Shown in pieces: positions 11,853 to 56,143 of a stretch of DNA of 64,000 bases. A program made the translations under genes and the position numbers. Source of the stretch: Dictyostelium discoideum. Lineage: Eukaryota. The stretch is from positions 2,880,001 through 2,944,000 of the forward strand of contig CM000153.2 of assembly GCA_000004695.1 (NCBI GenBank), given 5' to 3'. Within the stretch, counting starts at the first letter, position 1, and each line of letters starts with the position of its first letter. Under the pieces are notes generated by a model. It did no database searches and had not been told where the DNA came from. It saw only the letters and a list, made by a program, of their open reading frames with translations.

Positions 11853-14129
11853 TTAATTATTAATAATTCTAAAATTTAAAACCTCTTTAAAGTAAATTAT
11901 AAACTTTGGTTGAAAACAAGTATAAGCTTTATCTATTAGATAATTTATATCATATATTGTTAGAATTTTTGAAGTTGGAGTTATTTCATTTAATAATATA
12001 TTTTTATGTTTTTCAGAATTTACTATATATTCAAACATTTCTAATTTACCTAACGATATTGAATAAGATAATATTCTAGTAATTACTCTTGAACAATGAC
12101 TTAATGATAATATTCTTTCAAATAATTTAAAATCCGATCTAACTGCAATTTCAAATATTAATGAATCATTTAAAATAATATCCTTATCAGCAATATGTAA
12201 ACCTTGATGATAATAATATAATAATAATGGTGCATTAATAATTTGGGATGGATCTTGAACTAGATGAGTTGTTTTTGATTTCATTCTCCTAATTTCATTA
12301 AAAAGGTATGAAATTTTCTCTATTGACCCATGTAAATAATATTTTGATTTAAAAAGTGTTACAAGGTCAGTTTCTTTTAAAAAGTCTTTAATATTATCGT
12401 TATCTAATATAAAATCTATAGTTTCATTTGAACAAATTCTAATTTGATAAAAAATATAAACATTTCCTAAATCAGCAAAATAATTAATTGGATAATTATT
12501 TTTATAATGATACAATAATTGATAATTATTATTATTATTTCTTAATTCATCATCACCATCACCATCGCCATTATCTTCTCCTTGTTCTCTTTTAGTAAAT
12601 AAACAATCGATTTTAAATTTAATAATTGGTTTTAGTTCTAAATTATTTGGTGATAATAAATAGTCAATTACTTGAGTTGATTTTGGGAATACAAATGTTT
12701 GATGTGGTAAAGTAGCATTTGAAGTTGTGGTAGAAGATCTTCTAATTTTATCTTTTAATAAATTTCCAACCATTTCAATTAAAATAATATCATTTAATGA
12801 AACTAATAAATCAAATAAATCAATCATAATTCTAAAACTAATATTGCCACCATCTAAAAAATAATCTAAATATTTTATTTGTAAATCTTTTCTTCCATTA
12901 CAATTTTCAAATAAAAATTTTCTTGCATCAAATCCAACTAAATATCTAAACCATTCATAATTTTCATTATTACCACTACCACTACTTTTAAACATTATAC
13001 AATAATATAAATAATTTCTAATAGATTGTTTTTCAACACTATATGGTATTATCATTTTAAATAATTTTGAAATTAATAATTTTATTTTTTCATTTTCATT
13101 ATTAATATTATTATTATTATTATTATTAAAATTTATATTTTTAATTATTATTGATAATGGTAAATTTAAATTTTTAAATTGTAATTTTATATTATCTAAT
13201 TCCTCAATTGATAATGGTTCATCAATTGTTTCTTTTAAAAGTGGATTAATTAAAATATCAGATGACCCAAAACTTTGATTATTTAATTGTTTTTTTTTTA
13301 ATTCCCAGTTTTCTAATGATGGTAAATTTAAAATTGAAATACTATAACATGAATTTAATAATGACTCTAATGTTGATTTGAAAAATAGTGTATTAATTTT
13401 ATAATCTATTGGTTTTAATTGATTTGGTATTGTTTTATTTGATAATTGTAAAGTTTTAAAAACTAAATATTGTAATTTTTTATCGATATCAATTGACCGA
13501 TTTTCTTTATTTATTATTGAATTCCATAAGATCTGATTATCCATTTCTGGGCAACCCAATTGATTATAAATATAGTTTGCCATTTTAAATGAATTCAATC
13601 TAACTGATGATATAAACATAGTAAGAGTTGGTTCAATTAATTTATATTCCATATAAAGTAAATCTAATGCTATATAATTATCATATGAAATTAACTTTTC
13701 AACTAATAATTTAATATTCATAAATTTAAAAAAACTTGAATAATAATTTTTAAATAAATAATAATAAAATTCTATATCATTATGTAATGAAATAATTTCA
13801 ATTGATTCCTCTTCTTCTTCATCTTCTTCTTCTTCTCTAGTTGTTTTTATTTTTTTTATTTTTTTTTTTTTTTTAATATCTGGAATTGAAAAAATTGAAA
13901 ATAAAAAATCAGATTTCTTTGGATCAAATTTAATTTCTTCATTTTTTTTTAATTCATTTTTATTTTTATTTTTATTTTTATTATTTTCACAATTTCCAAA
14001 GAATCTATTTATATCATGAGGATATTGTAGAGGAAAATATATTTCATTTGATACTGGGTAAAATGATAAATTCTCTTTACCTATTTTAACTTTATCTTTT
14101 AATAATGAATAATGTTTATTATCTATCAT
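11853..14129 (-). CDS. Hypothetical 758-aa protein. Distant paralog of the 48529 and 53402 genes (lineage-specific family).
   Basis: Single long ORF. Shares sequence blocks with the two ~900-aa paralogs downstream, e.g. MANYIYNQLG here versus VAQYIFNQLF there. No known domain recognised. Confidence 0.5.
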   Translation of the reverse strand: MIDNKHYSLLKDKVKIGKENLSFYPVSNEIYFPLQYPHDINRFFGNCENNKNKNKNKNELKKNEEIKFDPKKSDFLFSIFSIPDIKKKKKIKKIKTTREEEEDEEEEESIEIISLHNDIEFYYYLFKNYYSSFFKFMNIKLLVEKLISYDNYIALDLLYMEYKLIEPTLTMFISSVRLNSFKMANYIYNQLGCPEMDNQILWNSIINKENRSIDIDKKLQYLVFKTLQLSNKTIPNQLKPIDYKINTLFFKSTLESLLNSCYSISILNLPSLENWELKKKQLNNQSFGSSDILINPLLKETIDEPLSIEELDNIKLQFKNLNLPLSIIIKNINFNNNNNNNINNENEKIKLLISKLFKMIIPYSVEKQSIRNYLYYCIMFKSSGSGNNENYEWFRYLVGFDARKFLFENCNGRKDLQIKYLDYFLDGGNISFRIMIDLFDLLVSLNDIILIEMVGNLLKDKIRRSSTTTSNATLPHQTFVFPKSTQVIDYLLSPNNLELKPIIKFKIDCLFTKREQGEDNGDGDGDDELRNNNNNYQLLYHYKNNYPINYFADLGNVYIFYQIRICSNETIDFILDNDNIKDFLKETDLVTLFKSKYYLHGSIEKISYLFNEIRRMKSKTTHLVQDPSQIINAPLLLYYYHQGLHIADKDIILNDSLIFEIAVRSDFKLFERILSLSHCSRVITRILSYSISLGKLEMFEYIVNSEKHKNILLNEITPTSKILTIYDINYLIDKAYTCFQPKFIIYFKEVLNFRIINN

Positions 14130-20311: not shown

Positions 20312-22292
20312 ATTTTATTTTTAAAAAAAAAAAAAAAAAAAAAATTATTATTATTATTATTATTATAGATATTTTAATTATAGATCAACAATATATCTTG
20401 TTCAAGAAGGTTTTTATAATTTTTTAAATTGGTTTGATGAAAGAGCATGGTATCCATTAGGACGTATTGTAGGTGGTACAATTTACCCAGGTTTAATGGC
20501 AACAGCAAGTTTAGTTCATTGGTCATTGAATTCATTGAATATTACAGTTAATATTAGAAATGTATGTGTATTGTTATCACCATGGTTTGCATCAAATACA
20601 GCAATGGTAACCTATAAATTTGCCAAAGAAGTTAAGGATACACAAACTGGTTTGGTTGCAGCAGCCATGATTGCAATTGTTCCAGGTTATATTTCACGTT
20701 CAGTAGCAGGTTCATTCGATAATGAAGGTATTGCAATCTTTGCATTGATTTTCACATATTATTGTTGGATTAAGTCAGTAAACACAGGCTCATTGATGTG
20801 GGCTGCCATCTGTTCATTGGCCTACTTTTATATGGCAAGTGCCTGGGGTGGTTATGTATTCATCATTAATTTAATCCCATTGCATGCCTTTTTCTTGCTT
20901 TTGACAGGCCGTTATTCACATCGTCTCTACATAGCCTACAGCACAATGTTTGTCATTGGTACAATCCTCTCTATGCAAATTACATTCATTAGTTTCCAAC
21001 CAGTTCAATCATCTGAACATTTGGCTGCCATTGGTATCTTTGGTCTCCTCCAATTGTACGCTGGTTTGTCATGGGTAAAGAGTCACCTCACCAATGAAGC
21101 CTTCAAGAAACTTCAACGTTTGACAGTGTTATTCGTTTTATCTTGTGCTGCTGCCGTACTTGTCGTTGGTACATTAACTGGTTACATCTCACCATTCAAT
21201 GGTCGTTTCTATTCATTGTTGGATCCAACCTATGCTCGTGACCACATTCCAATCATTGCATCAGTATCAGAGCATCAACCAACCACTTGGGCATCATACT
21301 TTTTCGATCTCCATATCTTGGTATTCCTTTTCCCAGCCGGTTTATACTTTTGTTTCCAAAAATTAACCGATGCTAATATTTTCCTCATTCTCTACGGTGT
21401 CACCTCCATTTATTTCTCTGGTGTAATGGTACGTCTTATGTTGGTTTTAGCACCAGTTGCATGTATTTTAGCCGCCGTTGCCGTCAGTGCAACCCTCACC
21501 ACCTATATGAAGAAGTTAAAGGCTCCATCATCACCAAGTGATGCTAATAATTCCAAAGAGAGTGGTGGTGTTATGGTTGCAGTCTTAACTGTTCTTTTAA
21601 TTCTCTACGCTTTCCATTGTACTTGGGTCACTAGTGAAGCCTACTCATCTCCATCCATTGTACTCTCTGCCAAACAAAACGATGGTAGTCGTGTGATTTT
21701 CGATGATTTCCGTGAAGCCTACCGTTGGATTGGTCAAAATACTGCCGACGACGCTCGTATTATGTCTTGGTGGGATTATGGTTATCAATTATCTGCAATG
21801 GCCAATCGTACCGTATTGGTTGATAATAACACTTGGAACAATAGTCATATCGCTCAAGTTGGTAAAGCATTTGCATCCACTGAAGAAGATGCTTACATAC
21901 AAATGAAAGCATTGGATGTCGATTATGTTTTAGTTATTTTTGGTGGTTTAACTGGTTACAGTTCTGATGATATCAATAAATTCCTTTGGATGGTTAGAAT
22001 TGGTGGTAGTTGTGATCCAAATATTAAAGAACAAGATTATCTCACCAATGGTCAATATAGAATAGATAAAGGTGCCTCACCAACAATGTTAAATTCTCTC
22101 ATGTACAAACTTAGTTACTATCGTTTCTCTGAAGTTCACACTGACTATCAAAGACCAACAGGTTTCGATCGTGTAAGAAATGTTGAAATTGGTAATAAAA
22201 ATTTCGATTTAACTTATTTAGAAGAAGCTTTCACATCTGTTCATTGGTTAGTTAGAGTTTATAAAGTTAAAGATTTTGATAATAGAGCTTAA
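19851..22292 (+). CDS. stt3: STT3, catalytic subunit of oligosaccharyltransferase. join(19851..20071,20369..22292).
   Basis: Very strong match to STT3 throughout: EFDP|YFNYR across the intron, WWDYGYQ, DNNTWNN, the C-terminal KVKDFDNR. Donor cc|GTAAGT (phase 2), acceptor tattatAG at 20368. Confidence 0.9.
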
Positions 22293-35592: not shown

Positions 35593-35676
35593 AAATAATT
35601 TCAACTTTTGCTAAACTAATGTTTTGTCCAAACACTTGTTATGGGTTTTACAAAACTTTTCATTTTTTCATTTTTC

Positions 35677-35744
<68 letters not shown>

Positions 35745-35966
35745 CACCCACTTTTTTTTTGTTTTATTTTATTTTTTAAAGAGGTATAAAAAAAAGAGAC
35801 AGGGGTTGATTTTAAAAATTATAAAAAAAAAGACCTTGTAATTTGTGTTTTTTTATAATTAAATTTAATATTTTCAAAATATCTTAATGTTTGGATATTT
35901 TTTTTTTTTTTTTTATTTTTTTTTTATTTTTTTTATTTTTTTTTTTTTATTTTTTTTTTTTTTTTT

Positions 35967-37295
35967 GTGAATAAGCAATTTGTTTATAAAATGAGTGATA
36001 TATTTATTGGTGTAATGTCAGGTACATCATTGGATGGTATTGATGTTGTAATTGTTGAATTTAATGATAATGATGATGATATAAAAAGAATAAATGTTAA
36101 ACAAAGTTATTCACATCCAATGCCAATTAATATAAAGAATGATATATTATCAATGTGTCAAGGTCAAAAAACTACATTATCAGAAGTTGGTAATTTAAAT
36201 AGAAGATTAGGTATAGTTTATTCAGAAGCAATAAATGAAGCAATAAAGTTATCATCAATTGATCCAAATTCAATTTCAGCAATTGGATGTCATGGTCAAA
36301 CTGTTTGGCATCAACCACCAACCAGAAAACATGGTGATGATGGTGATAATGATGATAATGATGATGATAATGATGGATTTACAATTCAATTAGGTGATTG
36401 TAATAGAATTGCAACATTAACTGGTATAACTACAATTGGTGATTTTAGAAATAGAGATATTTCATATGGTGGACAAGGTGCACCATTAACACCATCATTT
36501 CATAAATATTCATTATCAAGTTTCAATGAAAATAGAATCATTTTAAATATTGGTGGAATTTCTAATATAACTTTATTACCATCATTATCATCATCATCAT
36601 CATCATCAAATAATATTCAAGTTACAGGATTTGATACAGGAGCAGGTAATATTTTATTAGATAGTTGGATTCAATTAAAAAAGGATGGTACACCATATGA
36701 TAAAGATGGTGAATGGGCAAATCAAGGAAATGTAAATGAAAAACTTTTAAAATCATTATATGATCATAGTGATTCATTTTTAAATAAATTACCACCAAAA
36801 TCAACTGGTCGTGAATTGTTTAATATTCAATGGTTATTAAATGTAATTGAATCAATTAAAAATGATGATGATGATAATGATAATGATAATATTATTATAA
36901 AAGATGAAGATGTTCAAGCAACACTATTAGAATTTACATGTAAAACAATAGTTGATGAAATTAAAAAAATTAAAATTTGTAAAATTGATAGAGTTTTAGT
37001 TTGTGGAGGTGGTAGTAAAAATAAATTATTAATGGATAAACTTTCTAGATTATTAAAAAAAGATGAAAATGAAAATGGATGTGGTGGTAGTGTTAGTAGC
37101 GGTAGTAGTGGTAGTTGTAAACTTTCAATAACTGATGAATTTGGTATCAGTAGTCAAGATATGGAGGCAATTGCATTTGCATGGTTTGCAAAAAGAACTT
37201 TAAATAATCAACCTTCAAATTTAATAAGTGTGACTGGTGCTTCAAAAGAAACAATCTTGGGTGCAATTTATTTAAAAAATAATTTTAATAATTGA
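35967..37295 (+). CDS. anmK: Anhydro-N-acetylmuramic acid kinase (AnmK) homolog, bacterial type. Real start probably the ATG at 35991. Single exon, ~434 aa.
   Basis: Collinear with bacterial AnmK along its whole length: GVMSGTSLDGIDVV, AIGCHGQTVWH, GITTIGDFRNRDIS.GGQGAPL, NIGGISN, GFDTG.GN, PPKSTGRELFN, VCGGGSKN, DMEAIAFAWFA, SVTGAS. Interrupted by poly-D/N and poly-S low-complexity inserts typical of this genome. Confidence 0.85.
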   Translation: MNKQFVYKMSDIFIGVMSGTSLDGIDVVIVEFNDNDDDIKRINVKQSYSHPMPINIKNDILSMCQGQKTTLSEVGNLNRRLGIVYSEAINEAIKLSSIDPNSISAIGCHGQTVWHQPPTRKHGDDGDNDDNDDDNDGFTIQLGDCNRIATLTGITTIGDFRNRDISYGGQGAPLTPSFHKYSLSSFNENRIILNIGGISNITLLPSLSSSSSSSNNIQVTGFDTGAGNILLDSWIQLKKDGTPYDKDGEWANQGNVNEKLLKSLYDHSDSFLNKLPPKSTGRELFNIQWLLNVIESIKNDDDDNDNDNIIIKDEDVQATLLEFTCKTIVDEIKKIKICKIDRVLVCGGGSKNKLLMDKLSRLLKKDENENGCGGSVSSGSSGSCKLSITDEFGISSQDMEAIAFAWFAKRTLNNQPSNLISVTGASKETILGAIYLKNNFNN

Positions 37296-39192: not shown

Positions 39193-39292
39193 NNNNNNNN
39201 NNNNNNNNNNNNNNNNNNNNNNNNNNNNNNNNNNNNNNNNNNNNNNNNNNNNNNNNNNNNNNNNNNNNNNNNNNNNNNNNNNNNNNNNNNNN
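39193..39292. other. Assembly gap (100 N).
   Basis: Run of N characters. Confidence 1.
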
Positions 39293-39304
39293 AAAAAATA
39301 TATA

Positions 39305-39388: not shown

Positions 39389-40363
<975 letters not shown>

Positions 40364-48528: not shown

Positions 48529-50101
48529 TTAGTTGAATTCTTTTCCAAATACTTTTTCAAAGTAAGATATTAATGTATAATTATTAGATGATGATTGGTT
48601 TTTTAAAGTTTCTTCAAATATTTCTAGATTTGGTTTAAAATTTAAGTCTTTAATTATAAAATCAATAAAGTCAATATATCCATATTGAAAAGAAGTCTCG
48701 AATATACCTTCAAAACCGATTGTTGCAATTTCATCTTTATATTTTTTATAAATATTAAGGTTTCCATAAATTCGAGCAGCATTTTTAGTTACTGCAATTA
48801 ATTCAAAGAAAGGTCCATATGGTCGTGTTTGTTCATTTAGTTGTTGTTGTCTTGAATTTATTAAAAATTCAATTGTTGATATATCATTTTTTTTAACGAT
48901 TTCCAAAACTGTTTTAATCTCAACAAAATTTCCATATCTATTATATCCATTGTTTGAAAATATCATTTCTTTCATTTTATCAAATTGACCATTTAAATAA
49001 TAGCAAGTAAATAATCCTTCATTATCATCAGTTTTAATTTTATGGGGATAATTTTTTAAAATATGATATTTGTTTTCAACTTCTAGATAAATATATCTTA
49101 AACTTTCAATTTTACTATTTTCAATACAATCTATTAGTTTGTTTAAAGTTGATACTTGAATTTCTTTATATGGTTTTCTTGTAAATTGTTGGTCAATATA
49201 TTTTTTTAAATTAATATTATTTTTGAAATCATTAAAATTTTCAATCATAAAATTAATATCACATTTTAAAATTGAAATATTTTTTTGACTAGATAATAAT
49301 GTATATTGTTGATAATAATTATTTTTAAAATGGTTTGCAATTTTATAATTTGAAATTATTTGACCAAAACAAAATGATTTTTCAATTACAGTTGGTCCAG
49401 AAAGTTTTTCAAGTTGATTTTTAATATAATCAAACATCAATGGTGATTTAATTGATTCAATCACTGATGTATTACAAATTGGCGGAAGACTCTCAAATGC
49501 CATCTTAACCAACTCGATATCATCTGATAATATGACCTCTTTAATTAAGTCGATTTTAATATTTGGAATTGATTCAGAATAAATAGCTGGAATTTGTTCG
49601 ATTGCATCTTTATAATATTGATGAATTAATTCTTTTTGATTTTTAACAAAACGAAATTTACTATCTGAAAATTTACCAGTTTGTACTTCTTGAAATGGAT
49701 GTTTGTATTCAATTCTACCAAAAGAAGAAAATTTTTCAGGATAAAATATACCAAACATATTTGGATGAAGACATGAACTAGGTTGTGATTTTAAATCTTC
49801 ATTTGATATCATTTTGCTATTGTATTTAAATTTATGAAATAAAAAATTTTCAATTATACTTTCTTTTTTAAAAATGTGTATTATTGCCATTTCATAAATT
49901 GATTTAACTCTTTCATCATTTGGGTTGAATTCACCAATTGTTGTTGATAACTCTTGTTTTGTAAATGATTTTGAAATTTCATTTAGTTCATTTTGATTTT
50001 TAAAACTTTTAAAACTTTTAATTTCATTTATATATTTTATTACTTGGTTTTGATTATTTTTCATTTGATCATTCTTTGAAGGTAATATAAATGGATTGTT
50101 A

Positions 50102-50172
<71 letters not shown>

Positions 50173-50194
50173 TTTATTATCATTATTTTTATTA

Positions 50195-50273
<79 letters not shown>

Positions 50274-51348
50274 CATTATTATTATTATTTTTATTACTAC
50301 TATTGTTGTCGTCATTCAAAATTGACTTTAATTTTGGTTTATATGAATCACTAAAACAATTTAAATTATTTAACCTTAAAATTGTTTTACATAAATCTAT
50401 AATTGAAGATAAAGGATAAGAGAATGCATAAAGTTGAATACAAAGTTTTGTATTTTTTGAATTTAATGATTCATTTGGTGTTTCGTTGATAAATTGTGGT
50501 ATTTTAATCTTTTCAATTAAAAATTCAATCTTTTCATTAAAGTTATTATTATCTTTAGTGAAATAAATATTTTCAGGTGAAAATACAGTTTCAAACCATA
50601 TACTATTTAATTGCGATTCTGTAATATCATCATTTGATTTAAATAATTGATTGAAAATATATTGTGCAACTTTTAATGACCCAATTGCAATAGCATTTTT
50701 AAAAAAGTTAAATGATAATTTTTTACCATTTGAATAATAATAATATTCATTAATTACTTTCATCGATGCAACATTATCATAAACCAATGATAAATATTTA
50801 ATTTCTCTTAATGATTTTAATTTTTTATTTTTAATACCATCATCATTAATTTCTGTTGACAATGGTGGCAATTGAAAATATAATTTATAATTTTTAAATA
50901 AATTTTTAAAAAATTCTTCATCATCTTTGAAAACATTGAAAATTGATGATTTATAATAAACTCTTATTTTTTTAAATTTTTTAGCATCTAATTTATCTCT
51001 TGATAAATTTATAGGTAAATAAGTTTTATTTAAATCACCTCTCGAGTTTGAATCGGTTTGCTGATCATCTTCTGGTGAATTACTACTGAATATTAATTGT
51101 TCACCTCTGATAACTTTACATTTTAATAATTCTGTATAACCATTTTTTATCATCCATCCTACTCTAACAATTTCTTCATATCTATAAATCCCATTTCTAA
51201 ATTCTGATTTTAAACTTGTGAATATTAAATTTTTTATATATTTATTTCTAAAAACAGAAAAAAATAATTTTTCAATGTCATAATTATTATTATGATTATT
51301 ATTATTTTCAATCTTTAATTTTTTTTTATAACGAAATGGATCATCCAT
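48529..51348 (-). CDS. Hypothetical 939-aa protein, lineage-specific family, paralog A of the tandem pair.
   Basis: Intact ORF, ~85% identical to 53402..56143. (AAT)n-encoded poly-N insert present only in this copy. Confidence 0.6.
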
Positions 51349-53401: not shown

Positions 53402-56143
53402 TTATTTTAATATTGAAAAACCTATTTGGTTGGGTTCTTTTCCAAATACTTTTTCAAAGTAAGATGTTAATGTATAATTATTAGATGATGATTGATTTTT
53501 TAAAGTTTCTTCAAATCTAGAAAGATTTGGTTCAAATTTTAAATCTTTAATTATAAAATCAATAATGTCAATATATCCATATTGAAAAGAAATATAGAAA
53601 TCACCTTCAAAATCCATTGTTTCAAAATAATCTTTAAGGTTTTTTAAAATATTAAGGTTTCCATAAATTCGAGCAGCATTTTTAAGTGCCCTAATTAATT
53701 CAATGAAAAGTTCTTTTGGTCTTGTTTGTTGTGTTTGATCATTTTGTTGTTGTAGTTGTTGTCTTGAATTTATTAAAAATTCAATTGTTGATATATCATT
53801 TCTTTTAACGATTTCAAAAATTGTATAAATTTCAACAAATCTAACACATCCATTTTCTGAAAATATCATTTCTTTCATTTTATCAAATTGACCATTTAAA
53901 TAATAGCAAGTAAATAATCCTTCATTATCATCAGTTTTAATTTTATGAGGATAATTTTTTAAAACATGATAATGGCATTCAACTTTTGGACAAATATATC
54001 TTAAACTTTCAATTTTACTATTTTCAATACAATCTATTAATTTATTTAAAGTTGAAACTTGAATTTCTTCATTTGATTTTCTTGTAAATTGTTGACCAAT
54101 GTATGTATTTAAATTAATATTATTTTTGAAATCATTAAAATTTTCAATCATAAAATTAATATCACATTTTGAAATTGAAATATTTTCTTGACCAGAAAAT
54201 AATGAATATTGTTGATAATAATAATTTTTAAAATGGTTTGCAATTTTATAATTTGAAATGATTTGATCGAAACAAAGTGAATTTTCAGTTGGTTTAGAAA
54301 GTTTTTCAAGTTGATTTTTAATATAATCAAACATCAATGGTGATTTAATTGATTCAATCACTGATGTATTAAAATTTAGTGGATGAAGACTCTCAAATAC
54401 CATCTTAACCAACTCAATATCATCTGATAATATGACCTCTTTAATTAAGTCTATTTTAATATTACCAGAAAAGTGAGCTGGAATTTGTTCGATTGCATCT
54501 TTATAATATTGATGAATTAATTCTTTTTGATTTTTAACAAAACAAAATTTACTATCTGGAAATTTACCAATTTGTACTTTTTCAAATGGATTTTTATAAT
54601 CAATTTTAGCAAAAGAAGAAAATTTTTCAATTTGTATTTTTTCATGATTTTTATAATCACTACTAATAAAAGCAAAAGGTGAAGAAATTTTTTCAAGATA
54701 AAATATACCAAACATATTTGGATGAAGACATGAACTAGGTTGTGATTTTAAATCTTCATTTGATATCATTTTGCTATTGTATTTAAATTTATGAAATAAA
54801 AAATTTTCAATTATACTTTCTTTTTTAAAAATGTGTATTATTGCCATTTCATAAATTTTTTTAACTCTTTTATCATTTGACTTGAATTCACCGATTTTTG
54901 TTGATAACTCTTGTTCTGTAAATGATTTTGAAATTTTATTTAATTCATCTAGATTTTTAAAACTTTTAAAACTTTTAATTTCATTTATATATTTTATTAC
55001 TTGGTTTTGATTATTTTTCATTTGATCATTTTTTAAAGATAATGTAAATGGATTGTTATTTTTATTATTATTATTATTACTATTGTTGTCATTCAAAATT
55101 GATTCCAGTTTTGATTTATATGAATCATTATTTAAAATATTTAGTAGTAAAATTGTTTTACATAAACCTATTATTAAAGATAAAGGATAAGAGAATGCAT
55201 AAAGTTGAATACAAAGTTTTGTATTTTTTGAATTTAATGATTCATTTGGTGTTTCGTTGATAAATTGTGGTATTTTAATTTCTTCAATTAAAAATTCAAT
55301 CTTTTCATTAAAATTATTATTATCTTTAGTGAAATAAATATTTTCAGGTACAAATACGGTTTCAGACCATATACTATTTAATTGTGATTCTGTAATTTCA
55401 TCATTTGATTTAAATAATTGATTGAAAATATATTGTGCAACTTTTAATGACCCAATTGCAATAGCATTTTTAAAAAAGTTGAATGATAACTTTTTACCAT
55501 TTGAATAATAATAATATTCATTAATTACTTTAATTGATGCCACATTATCATAAACCAATGACAAATATTTAATTTCTCTTAATGATTTTAATTTTTTATT
55601 TTTAATACCATCATCGTCATCATTGTCATCATCATTAATTTCTTTTTCTTGATTTTTTTGATTTTGTTCTGGTAATTGAAAATATAATTTATAATTTTTA
55701 AATAAATTTTTAAAAAATTCTTCATCATCTTTGAAAACATTGAAAATTGATGATTTATAATAAACTCTTTTTTTTTTAAATTTTTTAACATCTAATTTAT
55801 CTCTTGATAAATTTATAGGTAAATAAGTGTTATCGAAATCACCTCTCAATTTTGAATCATAATAAGTTTGTGGACCATCTTCTGGTGAATTACTACTGAA
55901 TATTAATTGTTCACCTCTGATAACTTTACATTTTAATAATTCTGTATAACCATTTTTTATCATCCATCCCACTCTAACAATTTCTTCATATCTATAAATC
56001 CCATTTCTAAATTCTGATTTTAAACTTGTGAATATTAAATTTTTTATATATTTATTTCTAAAAACAGAAAAAAATAATTTTTCAATATTGTTATTATTAT
56101 TTTCAATTTTTAATTTTTTTTTATAACGAAATGGATCATCCAT
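53402..56143 (-). CDS. Hypothetical 913-aa protein, paralog B of the tandem pair.
   Basis: Intact ORF, collinear with 48529..51348. Confidence 0.6.
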   Translation of the reverse strand: MDDPFRYKKKLKIENNNNNIEKLFFSVFRNKYIKNLIFTSLKSEFRNGIYRYEEIVRVGWMIKNGYTELLKCKVIRGEQLIFSSNSPEDGPQTYYDSKLRGDFDNTYLPINLSRDKLDVKKFKKKRVYYKSSIFNVFKDDEEFFKNLFKNYKLYFQLPEQNQKNQEKEINDDDNDDDDGIKNKKLKSLREIKYLSLVYDNVASIKVINEYYYYSNGKKLSFNFFKNAIAIGSLKVAQYIFNQLFKSNDEITESQLNSIWSETVFVPENIYFTKDNNNFNEKIEFLIEEIKIPQFINETPNESLNSKNTKLCIQLYAFSYPLSLIIGLCKTILLLNILNNDSYKSKLESILNDNNSNNNNNKNNNPFTLSLKNDQMKNNQNQVIKYINEIKSFKSFKNLDELNKISKSFTEQELSTKIGEFKSNDKRVKKIYEMAIIHIFKKESIIENFLFHKFKYNSKMISNEDLKSQPSSCLHPNMFGIFYLEKISSPFAFISSDYKNHEKIQIEKFSSFAKIDYKNPFEKVQIGKFPDSKFCFVKNQKELIHQYYKDAIEQIPAHFSGNIKIDLIKEVILSDDIELVKMVFESLHPLNFNTSVIESIKSPLMFDYIKNQLEKLSKPTENSLCFDQIISNYKIANHFKNYYYQQYSLFSGQENISISKCDINFMIENFNDFKNNINLNTYIGQQFTRKSNEEIQVSTLNKLIDCIENSKIESLRYICPKVECHYHVLKNYPHKIKTDDNEGLFTCYYLNGQFDKMKEMIFSENGCVRFVEIYTIFEIVKRNDISTIEFLINSRQQLQQQNDQTQQTRPKELFIELIRALKNAARIYGNLNILKNLKDYFETMDFEGDFYISFQYGYIDIIDFIIKDLKFEPNLSRFEETLKNQSSSNNYTLTSYFEKVFGKEPNQIGFSILK

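Follow-up and report, generated by a model that had tools for sequence, protein, structure and literature searches.

A bacterial-type anhydro-N-acetylmuramic acid kinase gene in Dictyostelium discoideum and its probable transfer from Gammaproteobacteria to dictyostelids

What is a gene for AnmK (anhydro-N-acetylmuramic acid kinase), a bacterial enzyme of peptidoglycan recycling, doing in the genome of an amoeba? The question is raised by an open reading frame (ORF) at positions 35967-37295 of a 64,000-nucleotide stretch of Dictyostelium discoideum DNA (contig CM000153.2, positions 2,880,001 to 2,944,000), hereafter the window. An earlier note, made from the letters of this DNA alone, took the ORF for a bacterial-type AnmK gene and a candidate case of horizontal gene transfer (HGT) into the amoeba, long since domesticated there. 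Here we identify the gene as DDB_G0285145 and argue that dictyostelids as a whole hold a functional AnmK derived from a gammaproteobacterial transfer, most probably a single event that preceded the separation of the dictyostelid groups—we put the probability of this reading at about 0.7. The argument rests on the identity of the protein, its nearest relatives, and the signs of long residence in the host; the alternatives concern how often the gene was transferred and what its product does today.

The ORF exists on the forward strand and is uninterrupted and intronless, as first described; the GTG start given for it, however, has to be replaced. Translation from the ATG at position 35991 gives a product of 434 amino acids (aa) that is a 100% match to XP_639894.1 (DDB_G0285145, UniProt Q54NM2) of D. 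discoideum AX4, and this ATG is therefore the true start. The protein is labelled 'hypothetical' at NCBI, and automatic naming in UniProt calls it anhydro-N-acetylmuramic acid kinase. A mechanical ORF scan reaches upstream to the GTG because T-rich tracts, with very long poly-T runs among them (one of about 70 T), fill the 5' intergenic DNA up to the ORF start; such tracts are typical of Dictyostelium intergenic DNA.

Family membership can be judged from profiles, alignments, and a structure model. The Pfam profile PF03702 (AnmK) matches the protein with E=4.4e-122 and 408 bits (cutoff 24) over profile positions 2-366 of 367, and the NCBIfam equivalog NF007139 scores it at 427.4 bits against a cutoff of 367, which places it above the family threshold; under each of the remaining 13 NCBIfam AnmK equivalog sub-models it scores below the respective cutoff. 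In a full-length alignment with the AnmK structures solved for Shewanella and Pseudomonas aeruginosa, the protein reaches 229-250 bits, as against 125-150 bits to fungal levoglucosan kinase (LGK). An AlphaFold2 (AF2) model, with a predicted local distance difference test score (pLDDT) of 83 and a predicted template modelling score (pTM) of 0.86, has the two-domain ASKHA (hexokinase/actin-like) fold of solved AnmKs. The best Foldseek matches of the model are AnmK structures, namely 3CQY and the P. aeruginosa enzyme (PaAnmK), with E values of 1e-32 to 5e-39 and target-normalised template modelling (TM) scores of 0.84-0.92; the TM score against the LGK structure is 0.78. The collinearity with bacterial AnmK that had been read from the letters is thus confirmed end to end and goes well past chance, and DDB_G0285145 shows AnmK family membership in all features open to computational testing.

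The active site points in the same direction, and here the work on PaAnmK provides a guide. In that enzyme, D182 is the general base that activates water for opening of the 1,6-anhydro ring (PMC10570956), and S12 and D14 bind ATP and Mg2+ (tick AnmK preprint, bioRxiv 10.64898/2026.03.13.711553). These two sources together give S12, D14, D191, and F202 as the ATP and Mg2+ residues; T97 (at the N-acetyl group), R129 (at the lactyl carboxylate), and N168 as contacts of 1,6-anhydro-N-acetylmuramic acid (anhMurNAc); and E326 as a residue of Mg2+ and gamma-phosphate binding and of phosphoryl transfer (PMC10570956; bioRxiv 10.64898/2026.03.13.711553). Residues S12, D14, T97, R129, N168, D182, D191, F202, and E326 of PaAnmK correspond to S13, D15, T104, R153, N192, D215, D224, Y236, and E392 of the D. 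discoideum protein. Orthologues are present in Group 4 (D. discoideum, D. citrinum, D. firmibasis, and D. purpureum), Group 2 (Heterostelium album and Acytostelium subglobosum), and Group 1 (Cavenderia fasciculata), and in the alignment the nine catalytic and substrate positions are kept in all seven.

These nine residues also occur in LGK and alone do not prove specificity for anhMurNAc; a sharper comparison of invariant columns was therefore made. Among 164 bacterial reference sequences, 58 alignment columns are near-invariant (at least 95% identical), and each of the seven dictyostelids keeps 56-57 of them. LGK, represented in this contrast by one sequence, departs at 12 of the 58: at 11 of these the AnmK residue is found in every dictyostelid and at the twelfth in six of the seven, the sole departure being L to V in D. 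purpureum, and the LGK-type residue appears at none. Since AnmK residues are held at the LGK-discriminating columns, the dictyostelid proteins are AnmK-type rather than LGK-type, and the sequence makes it very likely that the biochemical function of DDB_G0285145 is that of an anhMurNAc kinase. A functional LGK as in fungi, which would bring 1,6-anhydroglucose into glycolysis, had been floated at the outset in the phrase 'levoglucosan-kinase-like'. Such an enzyme would belong to the same Pfam family and share the catalytic residues, and some fungal 'AnmK' proteins do phosphorylate levoglucosan; the lower bit and TM scores against LGK, the residues at the discriminating columns, and the score above the NF007139 cutoff nevertheless make LGK-type function very unlikely, and we disfavour it.

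Where did an AnmK-type gene in an amoeba come from? Four independent searches bear on this and agree with one another, each described by the top matches listed. With the D. discoideum protein as query, a word-indexed search of 5.8 billion proteins returned dictyostelids first and then named matches that were all Enterobacterales, at 45-48% identity. When a profile of six dictyostelids was run against the same 5.8 billion proteins, eight dictyostelid clusters led, the score fell from 612 to 537 bits, and only Enterobacterales followed among the named matches listed. When 1.84 billion cluster representatives were scanned exhaustively with HMMER, D. purpureum, Acytostelium, and Cavenderia came out on top, followed by metagenomic proteins, Zobellella, Acidihalobacter, and a gammaproteobacterial metagenome-assembled genome (MAG). 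Lastly, 185,579 prokaryotic species genomes were scanned from seed patterns, which bias the matches; among those listed, the best 80 loci share 48-54% identity with the D. purpureum protein and were Enterobacterales except for one 'Pseudomonadota bacterium' MAG.

Most of the 147 non-dictyostelid representatives are metagenome proteins without a name, and 'nearest' holds for those that are named or whose loci were inspected: these relatives are gammaproteobacterial, mostly Enterobacterales, with 45-55% identity. The two best metagenome matches sit on compact bacterial-type contigs, one of which carries tyrS, an M23 peptidase gene, and anmK in a row. No other eukaryote is found among the top 120 or top 150 matches listed in the searches. 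This matters for the view that eukaryotes inherited the gene vertically from ancient times and that most lineages have lost it—the AnmK family does turn up here and there among eukaryotes (fungi, Naegleria, ciliates, ticks, and rotifers), but the nearest identifiable relatives of the dictyostelid gene are bacterial.

The comparison with bacterial AnmK and LGK that the earlier note had proposed was carried out as a phylogeny in which 172 sequences were compared over 364 columns and LGK served as outgroup, using neighbour-joining (NJ) and 200 bootstraps. The deep placement of the dictyostelid proteins and their monophyly are weakly supported in it. Enterobacterales are monophyletic in 100% of the replicates (98-100% across NJ runs), Group 4 dictyostelids in 99.5%, and Group 2 in 97%, while dictyostelids and Enterobacterales come together in 36.5% and all dictyostelids in 17.5%. 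The next neighbours in the NJ tree are an Aeromonadales-type group (Zobellella, P0125, and P0131). Deep nodes stay unsettled under Kimura distances, gamma distances, and Dayhoff-6 recoding, with full and with reduced taxon sets, and signature residues that would join all dictyostelids amount to just two weak columns, too few to be informative.

A likelihood comparison (Poisson+F+Gamma4) was made of seven topologies for 31 taxa, and a single topology was rejected: that in which dictyostelids are nested in crown Enterobacterales (log-likelihood (lnL) difference 85, standard error (SE) 30.5, resampling of estimated log-likelihoods 0.001). The donor was probably a gammaproteobacterium related to present-day Enterobacterales but outside them, of a stem or sister lineage. 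For the number of events, one transfer ahead of the dictyostelid radiation is the most economical account.

Several properties of the trees weigh against that account. Dictyostelid AnmK monophyly receives 0-30% NJ bootstrap over the analyses; topologies with dictyostelid monophyly in species-tree order, with paraphyletic orders, or with Enterobacterales plus Aeromonadales to the exclusion of dictyostelids lie no more than about 1.5 SE apart. The tree set was assembled without Naegleria, ciliate, rotifer, and tick sequences, most of its tips are metagenome proteins, and the methods—NJ and a home-made likelihood implementation—are not state-of-the-art. Groups 4, 2, and 1 may instead have gained AnmK separately, related gammaproteobacteria serving as donors in two or three events: besides the low bootstrap values, the distances between dictyostelid groups are 0.6-0.8, as large as those to Enterobacterales; the best topology in the crude likelihood analysis sets Group 4 beside Enterobacterales; and no synteny common to Group 4 and the other groups was seen.

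Gene order, however, shows how far the trees can be trusted on this point. Cavenderia, of Group 1, and Acytostelium, of Group 2, have the same GPN-loop GTPase gene as the immediate upstream neighbour of AnmK; its strand is that of AnmK, the spacing is about 140-170 bp, and the two GTPases are 85% identical over 207 aa by tblastx (spans L087:8562-9864 and L088:8564-9830 in the two extracted loci). The ancestor that Groups 1 and 2 share therefore already had AnmK; yet these groups are joined in 0-4% of trees, and for this reason the missing overall monophyly does not speak for several transfers. Nor is lost synteny a sign of separate origin, as Heterostelium, itself of Group 2, has lost the GPN-GTPase neighbour (the arrangement is not kept in D. 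purpureum or D. discoideum either). The topology with dictyostelid monophyly is just 10 lnL units (0.7 SE) below the best, and all dictyostelid copies fall outside crown Enterobacterales. On balance we consider separate gains unlikely and retain a single transfer before the radiation.

How long the gene has resided in its host can be read from its surroundings and composition. In all seven dictyostelid genomes AnmK is flanked by eukaryotic genes on large scaffolds, and the gene order GATA-OSBP-Gig2-like-AnmK-unknown-SNF2 is kept in D. citrinum and D. firmibasis. The Cavenderia gene (GL883026.1; L087:10480-10567) contains an AT-rich GT..AG intron of 88 nucleotides that splits the conserved DFRxRD/GGQGAPL block; as this length is not divisible by three, the downstream motifs are in frame only once the intron is spliced, and because the six other orthologues lack an intron, it was gained after the transfer. 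The D. discoideum gene has a GC content of 26.6%, with 5.7% at third codon positions (GC3), and its relative synonymous codon usage correlates at r=0.94 with that of five neighbouring genes. For unsaturated dictyostelid pairs dN/dS is 0.24-0.33, a figure that is probably too high given the extreme third-position bias. The AnmK DNA is fully ameliorated to its AT-rich host and is under purifying selection.

These observations also dispose of bacterial contamination or an assembly artefact, which is ruled out by the GC3 value, the eukaryotic flanks on chromosome-scale contigs in seven genomes, the synteny in three species, and the spliceosomal-type Cavenderia intron. Taken together, contamination and vertical descent with widespread loss are hardly credible. 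Host-like codon usage, asserted in the earlier note, is thus borne out by both GC3 and the correlation with neighbouring genes, and support is found for its central proposal of a bacterial-type AnmK gained by HGT and long domesticated, for which the gammaproteobacterial nearest relatives, eukaryotic flanks, amelioration, purifying selection, and Cavenderia intron all speak.

One strand of the original case has to be given up. The gene is indeed intronless, a single uninterrupted ORF, and this had been set against a genome where most neighbours were said to have introns. Among the five nearest genes, however, a clear need for an intron is seen in the OSBP gene only; one ORF suffices for each of the GATA, Gig2-like, and 324-aa genes, and nearly the whole SNF2 gene is likewise contained in one. 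Since most of the nearest genes are single-exon too, intronlessness is not distinctive at this locus, and we have dropped it as evidence of transfer.

The poly-D/N and poly-S inserts described at the outset are present, as four low-complexity segments whose positions are given in Table 1 with those of the other features. The four are confined to the clade of D. discoideum with D. citrinum and D. firmibasis and are absent from bacterial AnmKs and from D. purpureum, Heterostelium, Acytostelium, and Cavenderia; they are also the only low-confidence stretches of the AF2 model. Between the AX4 protein (434 aa) and those of four further isolates of D. discoideum or cf. discoideum (415-425 aa), all indels fall in low-complexity zones—the four inserts and a D/N run at aa 24-33—which are accordingly length-polymorphic within the species. 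Insert 1 is placed on a hairpin that in PaAnmK moves during catalysis (PMC10570956); it is dispensable, since most orthologues lack it. The inserts look like the unconstrained, slippage-prone surface loops common in this genome rather than functional additions.

Table 1. Positions of the AnmK gene, its parts, and other features in the window (position 1 is the first nucleotide of the window).
Feature	Position	Strand	Basis
Single-exon coding sequence DDB_G0285145, 434 aa plus stop, AnmK-family anhydro-sugar kinase	35991..37295	+	Identity to XP_639894.1/Q54NM2; PF03702; NF007139; AF2 model
Upstream in-frame extension from GTG, outside the annotated protein, in poly-T-rich 5' region	35967..35990	+	ORF scan compared with annotated protein
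T-rich and poly-T 5' intergenic tracts	35676..35966		
N-terminal nucleotide-binding loop GVMSGTSLDG (G7-G16) with S13 and D15	36009..36038	+	Invariant in 7/7 dictyostelids and 160-162/164 bacterial sequences
Insert 1, poly-D/N, aa 110-124, PTRKHGDDGDNDDND; tip of mobile beta5-beta6 hairpin, after PaAnmK residue 102	36318..36362	+	Alignment; pLDDT about 52
R153 codon (PaAnmK R129; predicted lactyl carboxylate contact)	36447..36449	+	Invariant in alignment
Insert 2, poly-S/N, aa 201-208	36591..36614	+	Alignment, AF2 model, isolate comparison
D215 codon (PaAnmK D182; predicted general base), motif GFDTG	36633..36635	+	Invariant in 7/7 dictyostelids and 164/164 bacterial sequences
Insert 3, poly-D/N, aa 291-301	36861..36893	+	Alignment, AF2 model, isolate comparison
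Insert 4, E/N-rich then G/S-rich, aa 358-375, DENENGCGGSVSSGSSGS	37062..37115	+	Alignment; pLDDT below 50 at residues 364-371
E392 codon (PaAnmK E326; predicted Mg2+/gamma-phosphate ligand)	37164..37166	+	Invariant in alignment
Gig2-like neighbour, 451 aa	33006..34361	-	Weak partial Pfam Gig2-like/DUF1479 match, E=2e-11
Run of N (assembly gap)	about 39200..39300		
Putative STT3 oligosaccharyltransferase subunit, 598-aa ORF	20496..22292	+	Read from sequence alone
Long poly-N/Q/S ORF	11853..14129	-	No Pfam match
Long poly-N/Q/S ORF	39389..40363	+	No Pfam match
Long poly-N/Q/S ORF	48529..51348	-	No Pfam match
Long poly-N/Q/S ORF	53402..56143	-	No Pfam match

The window is very AT-rich (15-30% GC), and the neighbours of AnmK are ordinary eukaryotic genes (CDC24-like, TRAF/MATH, STT3, GATA factor, OSBP, Gig2-like, and SNF2 ATPase). 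Other murein-metabolism genes are absent from the 64 kb, and a co-transferred partner or gene cluster was found neither there nor in the flanks in four other species. The Gig2-like neighbour, which is transcribed divergently from AnmK, stays beside it in D. citrinum and D. firmibasis. The Gig2-like/DUF1479 family is also common in enterobacteria (E. coli YbiU); considered as a candidate second bacterial gene, this neighbour matches nothing in NCBIfam or the PDB. The STT3 ORF lies in the window's one markedly GC-richer kilobase (40%). About 1.9 kb downstream of AnmK there is an assembly gap, which appears as X in an ORF translation. The long poly-N/Q/S ORFs are low-complexity orphan genes typical of Dictyostelium, and tRNA genes are absent from the window.

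What might the enzyme do in an organism of this kind? Prey or symbionts have to supply the substrate, since eukaryotes possess no murein themselves. The protein has no N-terminal extension ahead of the ATP-binding loop, hence no signal or transit peptide, and for this reason is most likely cytosolic in D. discoideum. Salvage of anhMurNAc from eaten bacteria is a plausible physiological role. Gram-negative prey would be digested in phagolysosomes, and anhMurNAc, supplied by the ends of murein glycan chains and by the prey's own recycling pool, would reach the cytosol; there the kinase, using ATP and a water activated by D215, would open the anhydro ring and phosphorylate O6 to yield N-acetylmuramic acid 6-phosphate (MurNAc-6-P). 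An etherase of the MurQ/GKRP type would then be needed to feed metabolism, turning the product into N-acetylglucosamine 6-phosphate and D-lactate; in the MurNAc catabolic pathway, NagA and NagB come after this step.

For this role, too, there are observations that count on the other side. An SIS-domain gene was found neither in the window nor in the 8-10 kb around the AnmK genes of Heterostelium, D. purpureum, Cavenderia, and Acytostelium, a survey of these loci rather than of whole proteomes, and no literature linking Dictyostelium with a MurNAc-6-P etherase was found. Lysozymes, amoebal ones included, yield reducing MurNAc, and the anhydro form is a minor fraction of the MurNAc in prey; the substrate pool from prey is therefore small. 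DDB_G0285145 is not among the bacteria-responsive genes of one RNA-seq study (Lamrabet et al. 2020, PMC7078664), and it is absent from the supplements of PMC2443395. Finally, the only characterised transferred AnmK of a eukaryote, that of ticks, has much reduced anhMurNAc activity and is seemingly repurposed (bioRxiv 10.64898/2026.03.13.711553).

The lack of an etherase gene at these loci, the absence from the list of bacteria-responsive genes, and the tick precedent also favour a different reading, in which the transferred AnmK was repurposed—acting on another anhydro- or amino-sugar, or removing or sensing signals derived from bacterial anhydromuropeptides, as proposed for the tick. Although the tick enzyme keeps all its catalytic residues, its activity is weak and its role lies in reproduction (bioRxiv 10.64898/2026.03.13.711553); to this can be added that the dictyostelid gene has no operon-like neighbourhood, and that insert 1 lies at the tip of a hairpin closing over the active site. 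In dictyostelids, however, the 56-57 of 58 AnmK-invariant positions have been held in seven species over several hundred million years, including the equivalent of N168, which is changed in ticks, and inserts that are missing in most dictyostelids and variable in length within a species cannot define a new conserved function. Repurposing is thus possible but doubtful. It may also be, though we think it improbable, that dictyostelids hold an intact AnmK without an etherase, as a cytosolic sensor or neutraliser of anhydromuropeptide-derived sugars from phagosomes or from intracellular or farmed bacteria; if true, a bacterial recycling enzyme would have been co-opted for sensing prey or symbionts, in parallel to the repurposing in ticks. 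We continue to favour a functional anhMurNAc kinase with a plausible part in salvage.

Set beside known systems, the closest comparison is with bacterial AnmK itself (EC 2.7.1.170), for instance E. coli YdhH/AnmK, PaAnmK (3QBW and 8CPB), and Shewanella SO_1313 (3CQY). The dictyostelid proteins share with it full collinearity, the ASKHA fold (TM up to 0.92), 45-55% identity to the Enterobacterales enzymes, and all the catalytic, ATP/Mg2+, and anhMurNAc-contact residues. In contrast to its bacterial counterparts, the dictyostelid gene is nuclear, follows host codon usage, carries four disordered inserts in the D. discoideum clade, and lacks an operon or recycling context (AmpG, NagZ, AmpD, MurQ). 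The LGK of Lipomyces starkeyi (4ZLU/4YH5) shares the Pfam family, the fold, and the catalytic Asp and Glu; it differs in its 25-28% identity and in departing from AnmK at 12 otherwise invariant positions.

Among other protists, the nearest parallel in lifestyle is Naegleria, a bacterivorous amoeba with bacterial-type enzymes of MurNAc catabolism: its bacterial-type AnmK has been interpreted as part of prey cell-wall digestion (PMC9928731), and a GKRP-like MurNAc-6-P etherase of N. gruberi has been demonstrated biochemically, according to papers citing Veiga-da-Cunha et al. 2009. The etherase step is thus established there, whereas in Dictyostelium it is a putative one; Naegleria moreover belongs to an unrelated lineage (Heterolobosea). 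Its AnmK is absent among the close relatives listed for the dictyostelid gene, which suggests that the two lineages may have acquired the gene separately. Anaerobic ciliates, for which anmK and murQ are both reported among lateral transfers (PMC13198582), resemble dictyostelids as bacterivorous protists with laterally gained genes of amino-sugar catabolism, anmK included; they differ in having gained murQ as well, and in donors that include the Candidate Phyla Radiation and other uncultured groups.

Ticks offer the most detailed comparison. Their AnmK (IrAnmK) was acquired from Chitinophagaceae, with a further transfer in rotifers (bioRxiv 10.64898/2026.03.13.711553). As in dictyostelids, the tick gene is long established (fixed for more than 100 million years), with ameliorated codons, an intron gain, retained catalytic residues, and synteny within the clade. 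The donors differ, Bacteroidota in the one case and Gammaproteobacteria in the other; the tick enzyme has the N168C change, is weakly active, and plays a part in reproduction, whereas N168 is retained in dictyostelids; and the dictyostelid host is a phagotroph that feeds on bacteria.

A search for publications that mention DDB_G0285145 or discuss a dictyostelid AnmK gene found none. According to the tick preprint, earlier reports of anmK passing into eukaryotes did not exist (bioRxiv 10.64898/2026.03.13.711553), and the dictyostelid case therefore seems to have gone unremarked so far. The idea of AnmK in a protist is already published for Naegleria and ciliates, as it is for AnmK in ticks and rotifers, and the UniProt auto-annotation exists; our analysis extends the known picture and does not change it. 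What the dictyostelid gene would add is an ancient, pre-radiation, and well-supported example of a kind with few members so far, namely bacterial genes of peptidoglycan metabolism that became fixed in eukaryotes, with a donor related to typical food bacteria, which fits the 'you are what you eat' pattern. Compared with the systems above, it also has the advantage of a tractable model phagocyte—whether phagotrophs salvage muramic acid, and by what route, is directly testable in Dictyostelium.

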